Assembly: GCA_030141605.1 (NCBI GenBank)
Contig: JAQGDQ010002182.1
Coordinates: 1 to 10,685, forward strand
Reading direction: 5' to 3'
DNA: 10,685 nt
Source: Tubiluchus corallicola
Lineage: Eukaryota > Animalia > Priapulida
Positions 1,944 to 10,685 of this stretch are shown here, piece by piece. Position 1 is the stretch's first letter. The number at the start of each line of letters is the position of its first letter. A model generated the notes under the pieces. The model had not been told where the DNA came from, did not search any database, and saw only the letters and a list, made by a program, of their open reading frames with translations. The translations under genes and the position numbers were made by a program.

Positions 1944-1960
1944 GTGAGGTGGTGGATTTG

Positions 1961-2470
1961 ATGTGGTGTGGTGGTGGTGTGCTTTGTGTGTTGTGCTATG
2001 CATGGTGTGGTGGGGTGATAGGGTGTGTGGGGTGTGGTGTGGGTAGTGTGGTATGGAGTGGGTGGCGTGGTGTGTGGGTGGGTGTTGTAGTGCAGTGTGG
2101 TGTTATGGTGTGGTGCAGTGCGGTGTGATGTGGTGGAGTATTATGGTGTGGGTGGTGTGGTGTGGTGTGTGGGTGGTGCGGTGTGCTGCAGTGGTATGGT
2201 GTGGTGCGGTGTGGTGTGATGTGGTGGAATGGTATGGTGTGGGTGGTGTGGTGTGTAGGTGGGTGGGTGGTGTGTTGCAGTGTGGTGTTATGGTGTGGTG
2301 CTGTGTGGTGTGATGTGGTGGAGTATTATGGTGTGGGTGGTGTGGTGTGGTGTGGGTGGTGCAGTGGTATGGTGTGGTGCAGTGTGGTATGGTGTGGTGC
2401 AGTGTGGTGTGATGTGGTGGAGTGGTATGGTGTGGTGCGGTGTGGTGGTATTGTGTGGTGCAGTGTGGTG
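1961..2470 (+). repeat. TG-rich complex minisatellite, left arm (GGTGT-based, ~90-100 bp higher-order unit)
   Basis: The marker GATGTGGTGGA recurs at 2127, 2218, 2312 and 2411, with alternating ...TATTATGG and ...TGGTATGG variants. Confidence 0.9.
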
Positions 2471-3230
2471 CACAAAACCCACACCACACCACTCCACTTC
2501 ATCACACCACACTGCACCACACCATACCACTCCACCACATCACACCGCACAGCACCACACCATAACACCACACTGCACCACACCACCCACCCACCTACAC
2601 ACCACACCACCCACACCATACCACTCCACCACATCACACCACACTGCACCACACCATACCACTGCACCACCCACACACCACACCACACCACCCACACCAT
2701 AATACTCCACCACATCACACTGCACAGCACCACACCATAACACCACACTGCACCACACCGCGCAGCACCACACCATAACACCACACCACCCACCACCCAC
2801 ACACCTACACACCACACCACACCGCTGCAGCACACCACACCACCCACACACCACACCACCCACACCATACGACTCCACCACATCACACCACACTGCACCA
2901 CACCATACCACTGCACCACCCACACACACCACACCACACCACCCACACCATAATACTCCACCACATCACACTGCACAGCACCACACCATAACACCACACT
3001 GCACCACACCACCCACCCACTACACACCACCCACACCATACCACTCCACCACATCACACCACACCGCACCACAACATACCACTGCAGCACACCGCACGAC
3101 CCACATACCACACCACACCAACCACACCATACGACTCCACCACATCACACCACACTGCACCACACCATACCACTGCACCACACCACCCACCCACCTACAC
3201 ACCACACCACACCACACCACCACCACATAC
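2471..3230 (-). repeat. Same minisatellite in inverted orientation, right arm (CA-rich on +)
   Basis: The reverse-complement marker CTCCACCACATC recurs near 2530, 2624, 2705, 2873, 2956, 3044 and 3135. Confidence 0.9.
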
Positions 3231-3447
3231 TGGTGGGCCTGGTGGGGCTATAGAAGTGTGAGTCATCAGCTTATTATGCACTGCAAAGGCTTTTAATCAA
3301 TTTTAGAAACGAAGTAATGCCTATATTCCTTTGTGTAGTTAAAAATTAGAAAAAAAACATTTTAAAATATTAATTTATATAAATGAATTAACAATAAATT
3401 AAAAAGTGTACTGTTTCAAATCACACAAGTCTGTTTATTTGCAAAAA

Positions 3448-3914: not shown

Positions 3915-4249
3915 TGGACAAAAGAAAATCATTTTTAATTATTCTAAATCTAAATTTATGTTGTATATTTATCCTAATGTCATCATACTTTTTTAGTTTT
4001 GGATAGTGCTGCCACCTTCAGGTGCTCTTGTTAAAATTGTTGAACTTTCTCTTTCCTGTTTAAATTTTCATTGGCTTCTACAGTCTTTATGAATGCATAA
4101 TTTCTAAACCTGTTTTCACACCTAAATGATTTCACTTGTAGTGACTTGGTTTTCTGCTTTTCAACATGACACTACTTCACTGTTTATGTAGGCATTTCAG
4201 AATAAAATCTTAAAAATAAATCTCAAGTTTTTTTGGTTTCTTCAAACCA
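3915..4249 (+). repeat. 5' LTR (335 bp, TGG...CCA)
   Basis: TGGACAAAAGAAAATC... is repeated at 9684, directly after the PPT. The end ...TTCAAACCA is repeated at 10685 and is followed by the PBS. AATAAA at 4201-4206 and 4215-4220. Confidence 0.96.
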
Positions 4250-4255
4250 AAAGTT

Positions 4256-4266
4256 TGGTAGCAGAG
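4256..4266 (+). promoter_or_regulatory. Primer-binding site complementary to the 3' end of initiator tRNA-Met
   Basis: TGGTAGCAGAG lies 6 nt after the LTR end. It is the reverse complement of ...CUCUGCUACCA, the 3' end of animal tRNAi-Met (11-nt match, from recall of the tRNA sequence). Confidence 0.85.
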
Positions 4267-4282
4267 AGTAGTTTTTGTGACC

Positions 4283-7200
4283 ATGCCTACAACAGGACAA
4301 AAAGGTGCAGTTGATACTTCGTCAAAAGATGGTGAAGAAAGCAAAAACAGTGAAGCAAGTGGAGGACAGTCCAGTGAAAGGATTGGTGACCGAGTCAAAG
4401 CCTTGAAAAAGGAAAAAATGGCTGCAAAACAACAGTTTACAAAGCAGATCAACCGGTTTGGAGTCATTCTATGGGAACAGGAGGATTTACAGTTAATAAA
4501 ACAGCATTGGGAGCAGATGGATCTGATACAAGTAAGAACTACTGACATTATTAGAGAGTTGCATGAATATTACTGCACGCTGGATGATGTTGATATGATT
4601 GAGAAAATGGAACAAGAAATGGAAAAGCTGAACGAGATTTTTGAAAAAGCATCAAATGATTATCAACAGAAGTTGAAAATGATTAATGGTAATAAAAAAC
4701 AACCAGTGCAGTTACACTCGTCTGCTGTCAGTCAAGAGCCGGAGGAACCATCCATTGGTAGGGATTTGTGGAAGCAATTGAAAAGAGTTAGGATTCCAAT
4801 GTTTTCCGGAGATGTGAAAGAATATGAGAACTGGAAAGCTGCATTCAATGCCTGTGTAAATGATGCACCAGCAACAAAGGAATACAAATTGCTTCAGCTT
4901 AGGCAATATTTATCGGGTGTGGCACTGCAAGCAATTTCTGATCTGGGACATTCAGCTATGGCATACGATGCTGCGTTACAGCGATTAGAGCGAAAGTTTG
5001 GAGGGAAATCGAGACAGATAGCACTACAGTTCCAGGAATTGCGAAGTTTCAAACCAGTGCGAGCTAACAACCCAGATGATCTTGGTAAATTTGCTGATTT
5101 GCTCGACATTGCAATAATTAACATCAAGGAGTTTGGACTAGAAAATGAGTTAAATAGCCAAATGTTCTACAGCATGCTACTGGAGAAGTTAACAGAGCAA
5201 ATGGTGAAGGATTACAAATGTTGGATTTTAGAAAATAAGAAAGAAGATTCTGTCATGGTTCTCAAAGAGTGGATTGTGCGAGAAGCAGAATGCAGAACAC
5301 AGGCTTTTGAGATTGTCTACGGAGTTGGAAGCACAGCACAGAATGAGAAACCGAAATGGAAAAACAAAACATTTTTTGCAAAGCAGGGAAGCATTAATCA
5401 ATCAAAACAGCCACATGCAATGCGAAAGACACCTGGTAGAAGATGTGCATTCTGCACAGAAGATCACCCTATTTGGTTTTGCCAGAAGTTCAAGGATTTG
5501 GACATGGATGGGAGATGGAACGCTGTCACAAAACTCAAGCTGTGCTTCCAATGTCTGGGCGATGACCACCAAGCTAGCCGATGTTATAGAATGCGAAGTT
5601 GTGGAATAAATTCATGCACACAGAATCACAACAGGCTTCTTCATCAAAAATATTCTAAATCGAGTAGCATGCCAAAAGCTATTGTAGAACAAAGGATGCA
5701 AGAGGGGGAGACAACATCCACAGGTACTCAAGTACAGCTGACTACGATGACGGTAAAGGGTAAAAACTCATCAATGATCGCCATGAGGACAGTTCCTGTA
5801 ATCCTGAAAAATGGTACAAGACGTCTCCAGGTTAATGCACTTCTTGATGATGGCAGCACATCAACATTCGTGAATTCATCAGTAGCTGCTGAACTTGGTT
5901 TACAAGGGACAATCGAAGAAATTTCTGTCAGCGTTTTGAATGGAAATGTGACAACATTCGAGACTATGCCAGTTCACATGGGATTGGAAAATGTAGAAAG
6001 TACCCTGGACATGATGATAACTGCAAAGGCAGTAGACAGTGTTACTGGAAACCTGAAAGCGTACGACTGGAATCACCATGCTAACCAATGGTTTCACCTT
6101 AGAAACATTAATTTTCCAAAACTAAGCCGCCCTTTGAAAGTCGATATGCTGATTGGTTTAGACTACCCATTGTTACACAAATCACTAGGAGAAGTGGCTG
6201 GAAGATCCAATGAAGAGCCAATTGCACGATTGACACCACTTGGCTGGACATGTGTAGGGCAGACAAAAGAGAAAATAAGAGATGCTTACACCCATTTTGC
6301 GATGTGTGTCCTAAACAGAGAAGAAACTTTAAACAGAGAAATTAACGGAACACTTCGACGTTTCTGGGAGTATGAAAATTTTGGCCTCGAAGAAAAGGGT
6401 CAGCCAATCAGCATTGAAGATGCATTGGTCAAAAAGAAAACTTTGGAAACACTGAAATATGCTGATGGACGTTATGAAGTACAAATTCCGTGGAAAGATG
6501 AAGGTGTAAAACTACCAGACAACAAAGAGATGGCAATGAAGCGCTTGATCAACACAGAAAAGAAGTTAATAAAGAACCCGGAAATTGCAAAGCAGTACTG
6601 TGACACAATAGAGCAATATTTGGAGAAAGAGTATATACGAAAAGTGGCACCAGGTGAATTAACAACAGTTCCCAAATGGCATCTTCCACATTTTGCAGTG
6701 GTGCGTCATGATCGATCAACTACAAAATGCCGAATAGTCTTTGATGGCTCTGCCAAATGTGACGCAGTTTCCTTGAATGATACCGTGCATCAAGGACCAA
6801 AATTGCAGCAAGACCTGAATAGCGTTCTACTTCGATTTCGGAAGGAACCAATTGCCCTGGTCTGTGACATTGCTGAAATGTACCTTCGCATAGGAATAGC
6901 TGAAGAAGACAGACCTTTTCATCGTTTCCTCTGGAGAAATCTTGACACCACCAGGCAACCAGATGAATATGAGTTTTGTCGCATAGTTTTTGGAGAAAAT
7001 GCATCACCGTTTTTAGCTCAACTTGTCACACAGGAACATGCAAGAAAGAATCAAGAGAAATTTCCAATGGCTGCAGAGACTGTGCTGCATTCAACATACA
7101 TGGATGACAGCATGGATTCTGTTCCTACGGTTGAAAATGGAAAGACTTTGTACCATGAACTGTCAGAACTCTGGGCGCTAGCTGGCATGTATGCAAGAAA

Positions 7201-9664
7201 ATGGTTGTCGAACTCATCAGAAGTCTTAGCAGAAATACCAGTGGAACAACGCCTGCAAGAAATAGATTTAGAACATGAGCTGCCAACAACCAAAACTTTG
7301 GGTGTCATTTGGAGAGCAAGTTCAGATGTTTTTGCATTTCACATCAACATGCCACCACTCGAATTCAAGATGACAAAGAGAAATGTTCTGAGAAAACTAG
7401 CAACAATTTTTGACCCTGCAGGATTTATTTCTCCATTTGTAGTTCGTGGGAAGATATTACTGCAAGAAATTTGGACAGCAGGCTTTGGCTGGGATGACAC
7501 AATAAATGCTTGTTTGGAGACAAAAATTTGGCAATGGTTATTGGAGTTAGGAAAGCTGGAGCTGCTTACAATTCCACGTTGTCTGCGGATGGATCAGACT
7601 CAAATAGTTGTCTGTATGGACATCCATACTTTTGTTGATGCTTCACAACAAGCTTATGCTTGCGCTGTTTATGCTCGAACATCGTACATCAATGGCACTG
7701 TAGACACCAGGCTAGTAGCATCAAAAACACGAGTTGCTCCACTAAAAGTCGTCAGTGTACCAAGATTGGAGCTAATGGCAGCTGTGCTTGGCTTACAACT
7801 TAGCTTGTCAACCACAACAACACTGCAAATTTCTATTACCAAGGTGACGTTTTGGTCAGACAGCATGGATGTGTTATGGTGGATACATGGAAGAAGCAGA
7901 GCATTCAAGCCATTTGTAGCCAATAGGATTGGAAATATACAAAGTCACACGGATCCCGAACAATGGAGGCATGTGCCAACCAAAGAAAATCCTGCTGATT
8001 TAGTTTCACGTGGTGCAACTATAGACGAAATTGCAGAGAACTCAATTTGGTTAAAACGACCAGCATTTCTCAAAAAAGATCCTGCATCGTGGCCGGCAAT
8101 GATCGTTAGAAAGCAACAGTCAGCCACAGATGAGATGAAGAAAACTGTGGTTACGACATTTTGTACTCAAAAAATAAATTTGGAGAGACTGCAACCCGAA
8201 CGGTTTTCTTCATGGACACGACTTCTAAGAGTTTATGGATGGGTATTTCGTTTCTTAAACAATTGTGTAGCAGTGTACGAGAATCGAGAATGTGGAGAGC
8301 TTACTTGCAAAGAACTGAGCCAAGCTGAATCAACTGTCATCGGAAATATGCAGAAGACAGCATTTGCTGAAGAATACTCAAAGTTTGAAAGTGGAAAGCA
8401 GTTACCGCCATCAAGCAAACTATTGCGGCTAAACCCCAAAATTGATGAAGATGGTCTCCTGCGATGTCATGGACGTCTGGAACACGCCGAATTTCTATCG
8501 TATGACACACGGTACCCCATAATCTTACCACGGAAAAACTGGGTGACACATTTGATTGTGAAGCACCATCATGACAAAGGCAAACATGTTGCTGGAATTA
8601 ACCAGACATTGTGTTCCTTGTCAAGCAAATTCTGGGTTATGGCTGGTCGAGAAGAGATTCGCGACTGTGAAAAGTCTTGTCTTCAGTGCCGACTACGGAA
8701 GGCTAAAGCTGCAACACAAATTATGGCACCATTACCTCAACACCGCATTGCACCTTCAATGAGAGCCTTTACGAGAACGGCTGTAGACTTTGCTGGTCCA
8801 TTCTTCATAAAGCAAGGACGTGGAAAAGCTCGCTTGAAAAGATACTTATGCCTTTTCACTTGTACTGCTACAAGAGCTGTACATTTGGAAGTAGCTTACG
8901 GATTAGACACAGATTCATTCTTAAATGCTTTCCACAGGTTCACAAATCGTCGAGGGATGCCACAGCAAATGATCTCCGATAATGGAACTAATTTTGTTGG
9001 CTCAGATCGAGAGCTAAGAGAACTAGTAAATGAGTTTAACCAGGGAAAAATCACCAAACTAACAGGAGTGGAGTGGCTGTTTATTCCACCGATGGCACCT
9101 CACTTTGGTGGAGTCCACGAATCCATGATCAAGTCTGCAAAGAAAGCTATCACTGCAATTCTAGGCAATGCTGACATAACAGACGAGGAACTAACTACTG
9201 CCTTCACTGGAGCAGAGGCGCTCATTAACTCGAGGCCACTAACATACCAATCAGCTGACGTACAGGATACCATTCCTTTAACCCCAAATCATTTTCTGTT
9301 TGGTCAAATCGGCGGGCAGCTTGCCCTGGAAGCACTGGACTCAACTGCATACCATCCTAGGAAAAGATGGAGACGAGTGCAAGAGTTAGTCCATCATTTT
9401 TGGAGGAGATGGTTAAAAGAATGGTTGCCAGAACTAAGCCCAAGAAACAAATGGCGCCGTCAGCAACCCGAGGTTTCAGTTGGCGATGTGGTTTTATTTG
9501 TAGATCCAGCAACTACTAGAGGAAACTGGCCTCTTGGGCGAATCGTCAAAACCTATCCAGGGCAAGATGGTCATGTAAGAGTTGCAAAAATTCAAGTTGG
9601 CAATCAACAAATGACGAGACCAATTTCCAAAATCTGCATCCTGGCATCGTGTGGTGATGGTTGA
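4283..9664 (+). CDS. Gag-Pol polyprotein of a BEL/Pao retrotransposon (~1793 aa)
   Basis: Uninterrupted ORF. The ORF track starts at GTG 4277; the first ATG is 4283 with A at -3. Motifs: FSGDVKEYENWKAAF (Gag), three zinc knuckles, ALLDDGS (protease), CDIAEMYLRI / [10 protein letters not shown] / YMDD (RT), FVDASQQAY / PRLELMAA / FWSDS / NPADLVSRG (RNase H), HHCC, VDFAGP / SDNGTNF / GGVHE and WPLGRI (integrase). Confidence 0.97.
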   Translation: MPTTGQKGAVDTSSKDGEESKNSEASGGQSSERIGDRVKALKKEKMAAKQQFTKQINRFGVILWEQEDLQLIKQHWEQMDLIQVRTTDIIRELHEYYCTLDDVDMIEKMEQEMEKLNEIFEKASNDYQQKLKMINGNKKQPVQLHSSAVSQEPEEPSIGRDLWKQLKRVRIPMFSGDVKEYENWKAAFNACVNDAPATKEYKLLQLRQYLSGVALQAISDLGHSAMAYDAALQRLERKFGGKSRQIALQFQELRSFKPVRANNPDDLGKFADLLDIAIINIKEFGLENELNSQMFYSMLLEKLTEQMVKDYKCWILENKKEDSVMVLKEWIVREAECRTQAFEIVYGVGSTAQNEKPKWKNKTFFAKQGSINQSKQPHAMRKTPGRRCAFCTEDHPIWFCQKFKDLDMDGRWNAVTKLKLCFQCLGDDHQASRCYRMRSCGINSCTQNHNRLLHQKYSKSSSMPKAIVEQRMQEGETTSTGTQVQLTTMTVKGKNSSMIAMRTVPVILKNGTRRLQVNALLDDGSTSTFVNSSVAAELGLQGTIEEISVSVLNGNVTTFETMPVHMGLENVESTLDMMITAKAVDSVTGNLKAYDWNHHANQWFHLRNINFPKLSRPLKVDMLIGLDYPLLHKSLGEVAGRSNEEPIARLTPLGWTCVGQTKEKIRDAYTHFAMCVLNREETLNREINGTLRRFWEYENFGLEEKGQPISIEDALVKKKTLETLKYADGRYEVQIPWKDEGVKLPDNKEMAMKRLINTEKKLIKNPEIAKQYCDTIEQYLEKEYIRKVAPGELTTVPKWHLPHFAVVRHDRSTTKCRIVFDGSAKCDAVSLNDTVHQGPKLQQDLNSVLLRFRKEPIALVCDIAEMYLRIGIAEEDRPFHRFLWRNLDTTRQPDEYEFCRIVFGENASPFLAQLVTQEHARKNQEKFPMAAETVLHSTYMDDSMDSVPTVENGKTLYHELSELWALAGMYARKWLSNSSEVLAEIPVEQRLQEIDLEHELPTTKTLGVIWRASSDVFAFHINMPPLEFKMTKRNVLRKLATIFDPAGFISPFVVRGKILLQEIWTAGFGWDDTINACLETKIWQWLLELGKLELLTIPRCLRMDQTQIVVCMDIHTFVDASQQAYACAVYARTSYINGTVDTRLVASKTRVAPLKVVSVPRLELMAAVLGLQLSLSTTTTLQISITKVTFWSDSMDVLWWIHGRSRAFKPFVANRIGNIQSHTDPEQWRHVPTKENPADLVSRGATIDEIAENSIWLKRPAFLKKDPASWPAMIVRKQQSATDEMKKTVVTTFCTQKINLERLQPERFSSWTRLLRVYGWVFRFLNNCVAVYENRECGELTCKELSQAESTVIGNMQKTAFAEEYSKFESGKQLPPSSKLLRLNPKIDEDGLLRCHGRLEHAEFLSYDTRYPIILPRKNWVTHLIVKHHHDKGKHVAGINQTLCSLSSKFWVMAGREEIRDCEKSCLQCRLRKAKAATQIMAPLPQHRIAPSMRAFTRTAVDFAGPFFIKQGRGKARLKRYLCLFTCTATRAVHLEVAYGLDTDSFLNAFHRFTNRRGMPQQMISDNGTNFVGSDRELRELVNEFNQGKITKLTGVEWLFIPPMAPHFGGVHESMIKSAKKAITAILGNADITDEELTTAFTGAEALINSRPLTYQSADVQDTIPLTPNHFLFGQIGGQLALEALDSTAYHPRKRWRRVQELVHHFWRRWLKEWLPELSPRNKWRRQQPEVSVGDVVLFVDPATTRGNWPLGRIVKTYPGQDGHVRVAKIQVGNQQMTRPISKICILASCGDG
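5444..5644 (+). other. Gag nucleocapsid triple zinc-knuckle array
   Basis: CAFCTEDHPIWFC (5444-5482), CFQCLGDDHQASRC (5543-5584) and CGINSCTQNHNRLLH (5600-5644), the three-knuckle pattern characteristic of BEL/Pao Gag. Confidence 0.93.
5780..6260 (+). other. Aspartic protease domain (approximate bounds)
   Basis: ALLDDGSTSTFV with the catalytic Asp codon at 5846, followed by DMLIGLD and LTPLGW. Confidence 0.85.
6680..7320 (+). other. Reverse transcriptase domain (approximate bounds)
   Basis: HLPHFAV, KCRIVFDGSA, LLRFR, CDIAEMY, RFLWR, FG..ASPFLA, YMDD (7097-7108), RKWLSN, KTLGVIW. Confidence 0.95.
7620..8015 (+). other. RNase H domain (approximate bounds)
   Basis: HTFVDASQQAY, SKTRVAP, PRLELMAA, FWSDS, FVANR, WRHVPTKENPADLVSRG. 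Confidence 0.9.
8560..9640 (+). other. Integrase (HHCC zinc finger, DDE core, C-terminal domain; approximate bounds)
   Basis: HHHDKGKH...CLQC; D codon 8786, D codon 8978 and E codon 9119 (46 residues between the second D and E); NSRPL, LTPNHFL, FWRRW, WPLGRI. Confidence 0.93.
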
Positions 9665-9672
9665 CACATCAC

Positions 9673-9683
9673 GAGGGGGAGGA
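9673..9683 (+). promoter_or_regulatory. Polypurine tract (PPT)
   Basis: GAGGGGGAGGA lies immediately 5' of the TG that begins the 3' LTR and 8 nt after the stop codon. Confidence 0.93.
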
Positions 9684-9927
9684 TGGACAAAAGAAAATCA
9701 TTTTTAATTATTCTAAATCTAAATTTATGTTGTATATTTATCCTAATGTCATCATACTTTTTTAGTTTTGGATAGTGCTGCCACCTTCAGGTGCTCTTGT
9801 TAAAATTGTTGAACTTTCTCTTTCCTGTTTAAATTTTCATTGGCTTCTACAGTCTTTATGAATGCATAATTTCTAAACCTGTTTTCACACCTAAATGATT
9901 TCACTTGTAGTGACTTGGTTTTCTGCT
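9684..9927 (+). repeat. 3' LTR copy a, truncated (LTR nt 1-244)
   Basis: Identical by eye to 3915-4158. It stops at ...GGTTTTCTGCT and lacks the last 91 nt, including both AATAAA motifs. Confidence 0.95.
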
Positions 9928-10253
9928 AAGACTTCTGATGAGTTCGACAACCATTTTCTTGCATACATGCCAGCTAGCGCCCAGAGTTCTGACAGTTCAT
10001 GGTACAAAGTCTTTCCATCTTCAACCGTAGGAACAGAATCCATGCTGTCATCCATGTATGTTGAATGCAGCACAGTCTCTGCAGCCATTGGAAATTTCTC
10101 TTGATTCTTTCTTGCATGTTCCTGTGTAACAAGTTGAGCTAAAAACGGTGATGCATTTTCTCCAAAAACTATGCGACAAAACTCATATTCATCTGGTTGC
10201 CTAGTGGTGTCAAGATTTCTCCAGAGGAAACGATGAAAAGGTCTGTCTTCTTC
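9920..10253 (-). pseudogene. Inverted duplicate of the RT catalytic core (copy of 6902-7235)
   Basis: Reverse complement of 6902-7235, including YMDD. Three substitutions at 10019, 10128 and 10203. 8-nt microhomology TTTCTGCT (9920-9927) shared with the LTR. Confidence 0.95.
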
Positions 10254-10401
10254 TAGTAGTTGCTGGATCTACAAATAAAACCACATCGCCAACTGAAACC
10301 TCGGGTTGCTGACGGCGCCATTTGTTTCTTGGGCTTAGTTCTGGCAACCATTCTTTTAACCATCTCCTCCAAAAATGATGGACTAACTCTTGCACTCGTC
10401 T
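10252..10401 (-). pseudogene. Inverted duplicate of the integrase C-terminal region (copy of 9371-9520)
   Basis: Exact reverse complement of 9371-9520 (RRVQELVHHFWRRW...VDPATTR). It overlaps the preceding fragment by 2 nt (TC). Confidence 0.95.
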
Positions 10402-10416
10402 ATATTTGGAGAAAGA
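10402..10416 (+). other. 15-nt templated filler at the rearrangement junction
   Basis: ATATTTGGAGAAAGA is identical to 6616-6630 of the pol ORF, in direct orientation. Confidence 0.75.
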
Positions 10417-10417
10417 T

Positions 10418-10685
10418 ATCATACTTTTTTAGTTTTGGATAGTGCTGCCACCTTCAGGTGCTCTTGTTAAAATTGTTGAACTTTCTCTTTCCTGTTTAAA
10501 TTTTCATTGGCTTCTACAGTCTTTATGAATGCATAATTTCTAAACCTGTTTTCACACCTAAATGATTTCACTTGTAGTGACTTGGTTTTCTGCTTTTCAA
10601 CATGACACTACTTCACTGTTTATGTAGGCATTTCAGAATAAAATCTTAAAAATAAATCTCAAGTTTTTTTGGTTTCTTCAAACCA
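10418..10685 (+). repeat. 3' LTR copy b, 5'-truncated (LTR nt 68-335)
   Basis: Identical by eye to 3982-4249. It ends in ...AAACCA at the last base of the window. Confidence 0.95.
10637..10656 (+). terminator. Candidate polyadenylation signals of the LTR
   Basis: AATAAA at 10637-10642 and 10651-10656, followed by a T/GT-rich tract (GTTTTTTTGGTTT). Confidence 0.6.

Follow-up and report, generated by a model that had tools for sequence, protein, structure and literature searches.

It is an open question by what route a genome comes to have its first antisense RNA directed at a young and active retrotransposon. The maize Mu killer, as described in the consulted part of PMC3440606, is a derivative of a DNA transposon, transcribed from a flanking gene, with a hairpin of ~4 kb and with silencing demonstrated. 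The Tirant piRNA sources of Drosophila rely on a host gene or a transgene to drive the transcript; the tested fragment measured 2 kb, and silencing acts in trans via piRNAs (PMC13226689, in the portion consulted). At the level of DNA rearrangement, the available text of PMC11724301 reports that break repair can leave complex multi-fragment templated insertions, mostly of 50-300 bp, with 0-20 nt of microhomology. Here we describe an LTR retrotransposon of the BEL/Pao group that has features in common with each of these. Like Mu killer, it is a rearranged transposon copy in which the element's coding sequence recurs in inverted orientation, with a potential hairpin RNA (PMC3440606), and, like the Tirant sources, it has an antisense element piece in the 3' untranslated part of a polyadenylated, here predicted, transcript (PMC13226689). 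With the products of FoSTeS/MMBIR, Alt-EJ and cDNA capture at breaks, as far as they are covered in the same part of PMC11724301, it shares several short fragments in mixed orientation, overlaps of 0-8 nt and a flanking duplication. As it stands, the antisense-pol cassette in a split LTR is a candidate structure at a single locus.

The window, which is the whole stretch of 10,685 nucleotides analysed (contig JAQGDQ010002182.1 of the priapulid Tubiluchus corallicola), contains one BEL/Pao LTR retrotransposon at 3915-10685, with the following features in window coordinates:

3915..4249, + strand: 5' LTR, 335 nt, TG...CA ends, AATAAA at LTR 287 and 301; both boundaries common to relatives
4256..4266, + strand: primer-binding site (PBS); same 11-mer after the LTR end in relatives
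4283..9664, + strand: gag-pol ORF, single, 1793 aa, no internal stop, BEL/Pao domain order
6616..6630, + strand: source of the 15-nt sense piece, aa 778-783
6902..7235, + strand: sense arm A, reverse transcriptase (RT) core, aa 874-985, YMDD at 939
9371..9520, + strand: sense arm B, integrase C-terminal tail within DUF5641, aa 1697-1746
9673..9683, + strand: polypurine tract (PPT), position as in relatives
9684..9927, + strand: 3' LTR bases 1-244, 244/244 identical to 5' LTR 3915-4158
9920..10253, - strand: antisense RT arm A', reverse complement of 6902-7235 (331/334), 8-nt overlap with the LTR
10252..10401, - strand: antisense integrase-tail arm B', reverse complement of 9371-9520 (150/150), 2-nt overlap with A'; + strand AATAAA at 10274
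10402..10417, + strand: 15 nt of sense pol (copy of 6616-6630; exact match at 10402-10416) and one base
10418..10685, + strand: LTR bases 68-335, 268/268 identical to 3982-4249; reaches the window end

The element is a BEL/Pao member, with the protease-RT-RNase H (Peptidase_A17)-integrase order, Pao-specific domains, TG...CA LTRs, a PBS and a PPT. A Pfam search of the ORF returned DUF1759, protease, RT, Peptidase_A17, integrase zinc finger and DUF5641 in that order; Peptidase_A17, DUF5641 and DUF1759 score above the Pfam cut-offs, and RVT_1, Integrase_H2C2 and Asp_protease_2 slightly below theirs. Among the 120 matches listed, the named best matches to the ORF are 53-57% identical to it and come from marine invertebrates (sea cucumber, ribbon worm, coral, oyster and abalone), which makes a host of that kind likely. 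The related loci carry AACCA, three nucleotides and the identical PBS 11-mer in 17 of 52 cases, and a PPT followed by TGGAC or TGGTC in 4 of 52. Between the LTR end and the PBS lie 6 nt here (4250-4255), against 3 nt in 17/52 related loci. We take the PBS to be a match to the 3' end of initiator tRNA-Met. No relative was found when the RT query was compared with viral contigs, and a 22-nt LTR motif gave 0 matches in metagenome contigs.

An earlier note on this DNA had described the ORF, PBS, PPT and both outer termini as intact. This holds for the ORF (1793 aa, no stop), the PBS (4256-4266) and the PPT (9673-9683), while the outer termini are checkable by half, the window stopping at LTR base 335 with the 3' flank, the target-site duplication and a possible tandem copy all beyond its edge. 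The LTR copies are base-identical (95% bound on divergence 0.9%), so the insertion looks young, provided that the assembly did not collapse copies.

Directly upstream of the 5' LTR, the summed contig depth of the segment 3250-3914 is very high in sequencing runs X1 and X2, where numerous diverged contigs match it, and the element is therefore likely inserted in another repeat. The LTR as part of that high-depth repeat was considered and rejected, as relatives share both LTR boundaries. In runs X1-X4 the summed contig depth of the LTR itself (3915-4249) far exceeds that of the internal region, and diverged variants are numerous; summed depth is no copy number, and the excess hints at many solo LTRs or non-autonomous partners. 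Farther upstream, a GTG-rich minisatellite at 1955-3235 flips to its reverse complement near 2474 and forms a large imperfect palindrome, in which 373/403 aligned bases match and the longest exact mirror is 57 nt; the palindrome looks old and not like a fresh fold-back.

The 3' end of the element runs LTR(1-244), antisense 7235-6902, antisense 9520-9371, 16 bases and LTR(68-335). The earlier note had given this order of LTR pieces, antisense RT and antisense integrase together with their coordinates, and sequence comparison and self-BLAST agreed with it throughout (E-values of the copied pieces 6e-77 to 3e-174, far beyond chance). What it had taken for filler between the antisense integrase piece and the second LTR piece turned out to be, in 10402-10416, the exact sense copy of 6616-6630, a 15-nt match reached in 0/5000 shuffles and by 0 host-flank 16-mers. 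Because this filler is sense pol, all three inserted pieces derive from the element itself. LTR bases 68-244 are duplicated around the cassette and give a 177-nt direct repeat with 9751-9927. The four junction overlaps measure 8, 2, 0-1 and 2 nt, and an overlap of at least 8 nt is expected in 0.017% of random junctions. The 5' LTR is uninterrupted over its 335 nt, and the cassette is present in the 3' LTR only. The statement that the LTR is cut just before both AATAAA signals needs amending: the cut does precede them, but it lies 43 nt before the first, and the cassette adds a further AATAAA at 10274.

Our tentative preference, held at somewhat less than even confidence, is that the cassette was written after insertion, on the chromosome, in one burst of polymerase template switching. 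A DNA strand would have stalled at LTR base 244 (9927) and then made four jumps on 0-8 nt of microhomology: it would stop at 9927 and land at 7235, leave 6902 for 9520, leave 9371 for 6616, and go back to LTR base 68. The corresponding jump lengths are 2692, 2618, 2755 and 2648 nt (the last being 3121 if the strand landed in the 3' LTR), and they alternate between two neighbourhoods. Such jumps between the RT region and the integrase/LTR end, two sites with a spacing of ~2.7 kb, would amount to a templated insertion of the FoSTeS/MMBIR type, with the two sites held together, for example by the two forks of a small bubble or by a loop. A post-insertion event explains directly that only the 3' LTR is altered. 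The two-site alternation arose in 1.4% of simulations, or in 6% under a looser rule, and is a post hoc statistic; a figure of 0.0003 for four equal jump lengths was set aside, as it hinges on the post hoc choice of the nearer LTR copy.

The RT arm bears on the donor. A' differs from A at 3 of 334 positions (10019, 10128 and 10203), two of the changes being synonymous, against 0 differences in 485-662 positions of the other copied pieces (Fisher p 0.04-0.07). The cassette bases at 10019 and 10128 are present in ordinary contigs of runs X1 and X3, X2 has the host base at 10128, and at 10203 all four runs X1-X4 list the host base. At 10172 and 10345 host and cassette share bases against runs X1-X4, which places the donor close to the host copy. 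Overall the RT arm and the host RT diverge by 0.9%, and the window and the long contigs of run X2 by 1.06%. Judged from these bases, the mismatches point to a sibling donor, and template switching on the chromosome would then require an extra event: a later exchange or conversion with a sibling copy may have introduced them, or the assembly may display family alleles in the host RT. The mismatch at 7136 alters a residue that lacks conservation in 120/120 homologues scored and is thus uninformative. A-to-I editing was rejected as the source of the three mismatches, since all would be A-C in the duplex and editing gives A-to-G. Over 4400-9600, the differences between the window and run X1 contigs come in blocks (0/317, 1/556 and 0/260 versus 7/386 and 9/523), as in a recombining family.

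Sibling bases in the RT arm would be explained directly if the element's own reverse transcriptase had built the cassette inside a particle containing two different family RNAs, an origin that we regard as unlikely though worth serious attention. The plus strand, in the course of completing the 3' LTR, would have dropped off at LTR base 244, taken the antisense pieces from two stretches of sibling RNA and returned to minus-strand DNA, and the looped heteroduplex would have been integrated and then fixed by the host. Every donor is indeed element sequence, the 0.9% distance of the RT arm resembles the 1.06% between window and X2, the arm carries family alleles, the blocks seen against run X1 suit a recombining family, and co-packaging and template switching are established (PMC6894440, PMC3187697 and PMC1950507, in the parts consulted). 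However, both LTRs normally come from one template (PMC6894440, same part), and a cassette in the 3' LTR only would take a heteroduplex or an intermolecular transfer as an additional step; four non-homologous switches are required, each at least 1000-fold rarer than a homologous one (PMC3187697, as far as consulted); and the two-site alternation is left without a reason.

The cassette, or its link to the full-length copy, may instead be an artefact, either a chimera produced by whole-genome amplification or a path that the assembler took across the LTR repeats; we find this doubtful, though it keeps real weight. According to the consulted text of PMC9984789, MDA chimeras are mostly inverted and intramolecular with the parts <10 kb apart, as here, and the three base-identical LTR copies, with a window that ends exactly at the LTR end, look as if an assembler had reused one repeat edge. 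The same text gives MDA overlaps that peak at 7 nt (5-8) and distances of 250-300 nt, whereas at this locus 1/4 overlaps falls in that range and all jumps are ~2.7 kb. Four switches packed within 500 nt also speak against it, an assembler presumably cannot create four junctions without reads that contain them, and the upstream palindrome (373/403 aligned) is diverged rather than a fresh fold-back. As to the identity of an MDA chimera to its local template, the RT arm has 3 mismatches, for which an assembly effect could account. A search of sequencing runs by sequence words showed that 4 of the 6 listed runs, from two studies, contain 55-69% of the words sought; no RNA run was among those listed as containing them. 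Run X6, presumably RNA, gave no matching contigs and X5 next to none, which weighs neither for nor against the junctions. Comparison of 9830-10480 with the contigs of runs X1-X4 gave no junction-bridging piece among 32 of 575 listed, in contigs that drop rare variants, behind a filter that omits records and in runs that lie ~1% from the window. The contig depth beside junctions 1 and 2 is that of a single ordinary contig in nearly all cases, the exception being X4 (50.6 versus 48.5 at junction 1), and beside junction 3 it is that of a single ordinary contig in X1 and X2.

The DNA as assembled contains the layout of an inverted duplicate of element coding sequence within one transcription unit, the unit itself being a prediction. 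In a read-through RNA the arms are predicted to form two duplexes, one of 330 bp (-639 kcal/mol) and one of 150 bp (-298 kcal/mol), in an A-B-A'-B' order; uninterrupted pairing extends over 50-150 bp at a time, and the loops measure 2684 and 731 nt. A 5' LTR transcript that reached the signals at 10637 and 10651 would include all arms, and the AATAAA at 10274 could end it early with the RT arm still retained. Six more AATAAA hexamers lie inside the ORF and look unused, so a lone hexamer decides nothing on termination. The TATA box of four related LTRs aligns loosely near LTR 180. This hints that the promoter may lie within LTR 1-244, in which case a short antisense RNA could start from the 3' LTR too; the consulted part of an LTR review (PMC3601003) does not model BEL/Pao. 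Transcription from both LTR promoters would then cross the 482 nt of antisense RT and integrase; intramolecular duplexes would result, and the 3' LTR would contribute a short RNA that is purely antisense. Such RNA would seed siRNA or piRNA against all siblings without a piRNA cluster or a host gene.

That one replication accident made an autonomous animal LTR retrotransposon the silencer of its own family, fixed in place, is a prediction of working activity that we judge improbable; our estimate was lowered because artefact, absent expression and self-shutdown were allowed for. The function to be expected is at best that of an accidental, static siRNA or piRNA source against the family, and not of a mobile silencer.

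The earlier note had gone further and read the locus as a candidate hairpin silencer that its copy could in principle spread. The DNA anatomy of that reading (two long duplexes in A-B-A'-B' order) and its precedents (Mu killer, Tirant) stand; the evidence weighs against the self-spreading. That the copy enters particles, retrotransposes together with its cassette and thereby carries a silencer through the whole family is very improbable indeed, even though the ORF, PBS, PPT and in-window LTR ends are intact and, in Drosophila, antisense fragments in a 3' UTR are enough to silence Tirant in trans (PMC13226689, in the portion consulted). Daughters would have the cassette in both LTRs or in neither, and here one LTR alone has it, the 5' LTR being an uninterrupted 335 nt. 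Since reverse transcription rebuilds both LTRs from one template (PMC6894440, in the part consulted), the one-sided cassette marks a founder that has passed through no cycle. The cassette also lies between 177-nt direct repeats, which reverse transcriptase tends to delete; in a retroviral vector, 41% of single cycles led to the loss of a 110-bp repeat (PMC3187697, as far as consulted). Moreover, dicing would likely act on an RNA with 480 bp of duplex before it could be packaged. Finally, antisense pol behind the ORF was found in 0/20 related loci with at least 300 nt past the ORF end, taken from 52 loci that are distant and partly redundant, and the window, run as a control, gave both matches.

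In several related loci (L022:7485-8977, and also L023, L025, L026 and L027) the BEL/Pao ORF stops near aa 1449 and is followed by integrase-half matches on the minus strand; they are without an inverted repeat of at least 40 nt, and we read them as an inversion or a second element. The literature, searched by title and abstract start with most subscription papers outside the coverage, gave no description of an LTR retrotransposon in which antisense pol splits one of the LTRs.

If the structure is real and expressed, it would be a third route to antisense RNA, one that needs the element alone. If the silencer is true, the locus would be for retroelements what Mu killer is for DNA transposons, seen at the moment of its origin; as a mere repair scar, it would still document two-site template switching cleanly.

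With the BEL/Pao (Belpaoviridae) elements of marine invertebrates the element shares the gag-pol ORF domains, LTR ends, PBS and PPT, and it differs from these relatives in that its 3' LTR is split by an antisense pol cassette, which occurs in 0/20 related loci with a full 3' end. Compared with the complex templated insertions, the fragments here all belong to a single retrotransposon family, and their sources alternate between two sites at a distance of 2.7 kb. In contrast to the Tirant sources, the element's own LTR would drive the 482 nt of antisense sequence, the sense partner is in the same RNA, and the promoter that could be shut off would be the element's own. Unlike Mu killer, the element described here is a retroelement that keeps its ORF whole; it has two arms and two loops (2684 and 731 nt), and its own LTR is the presumed promoter.
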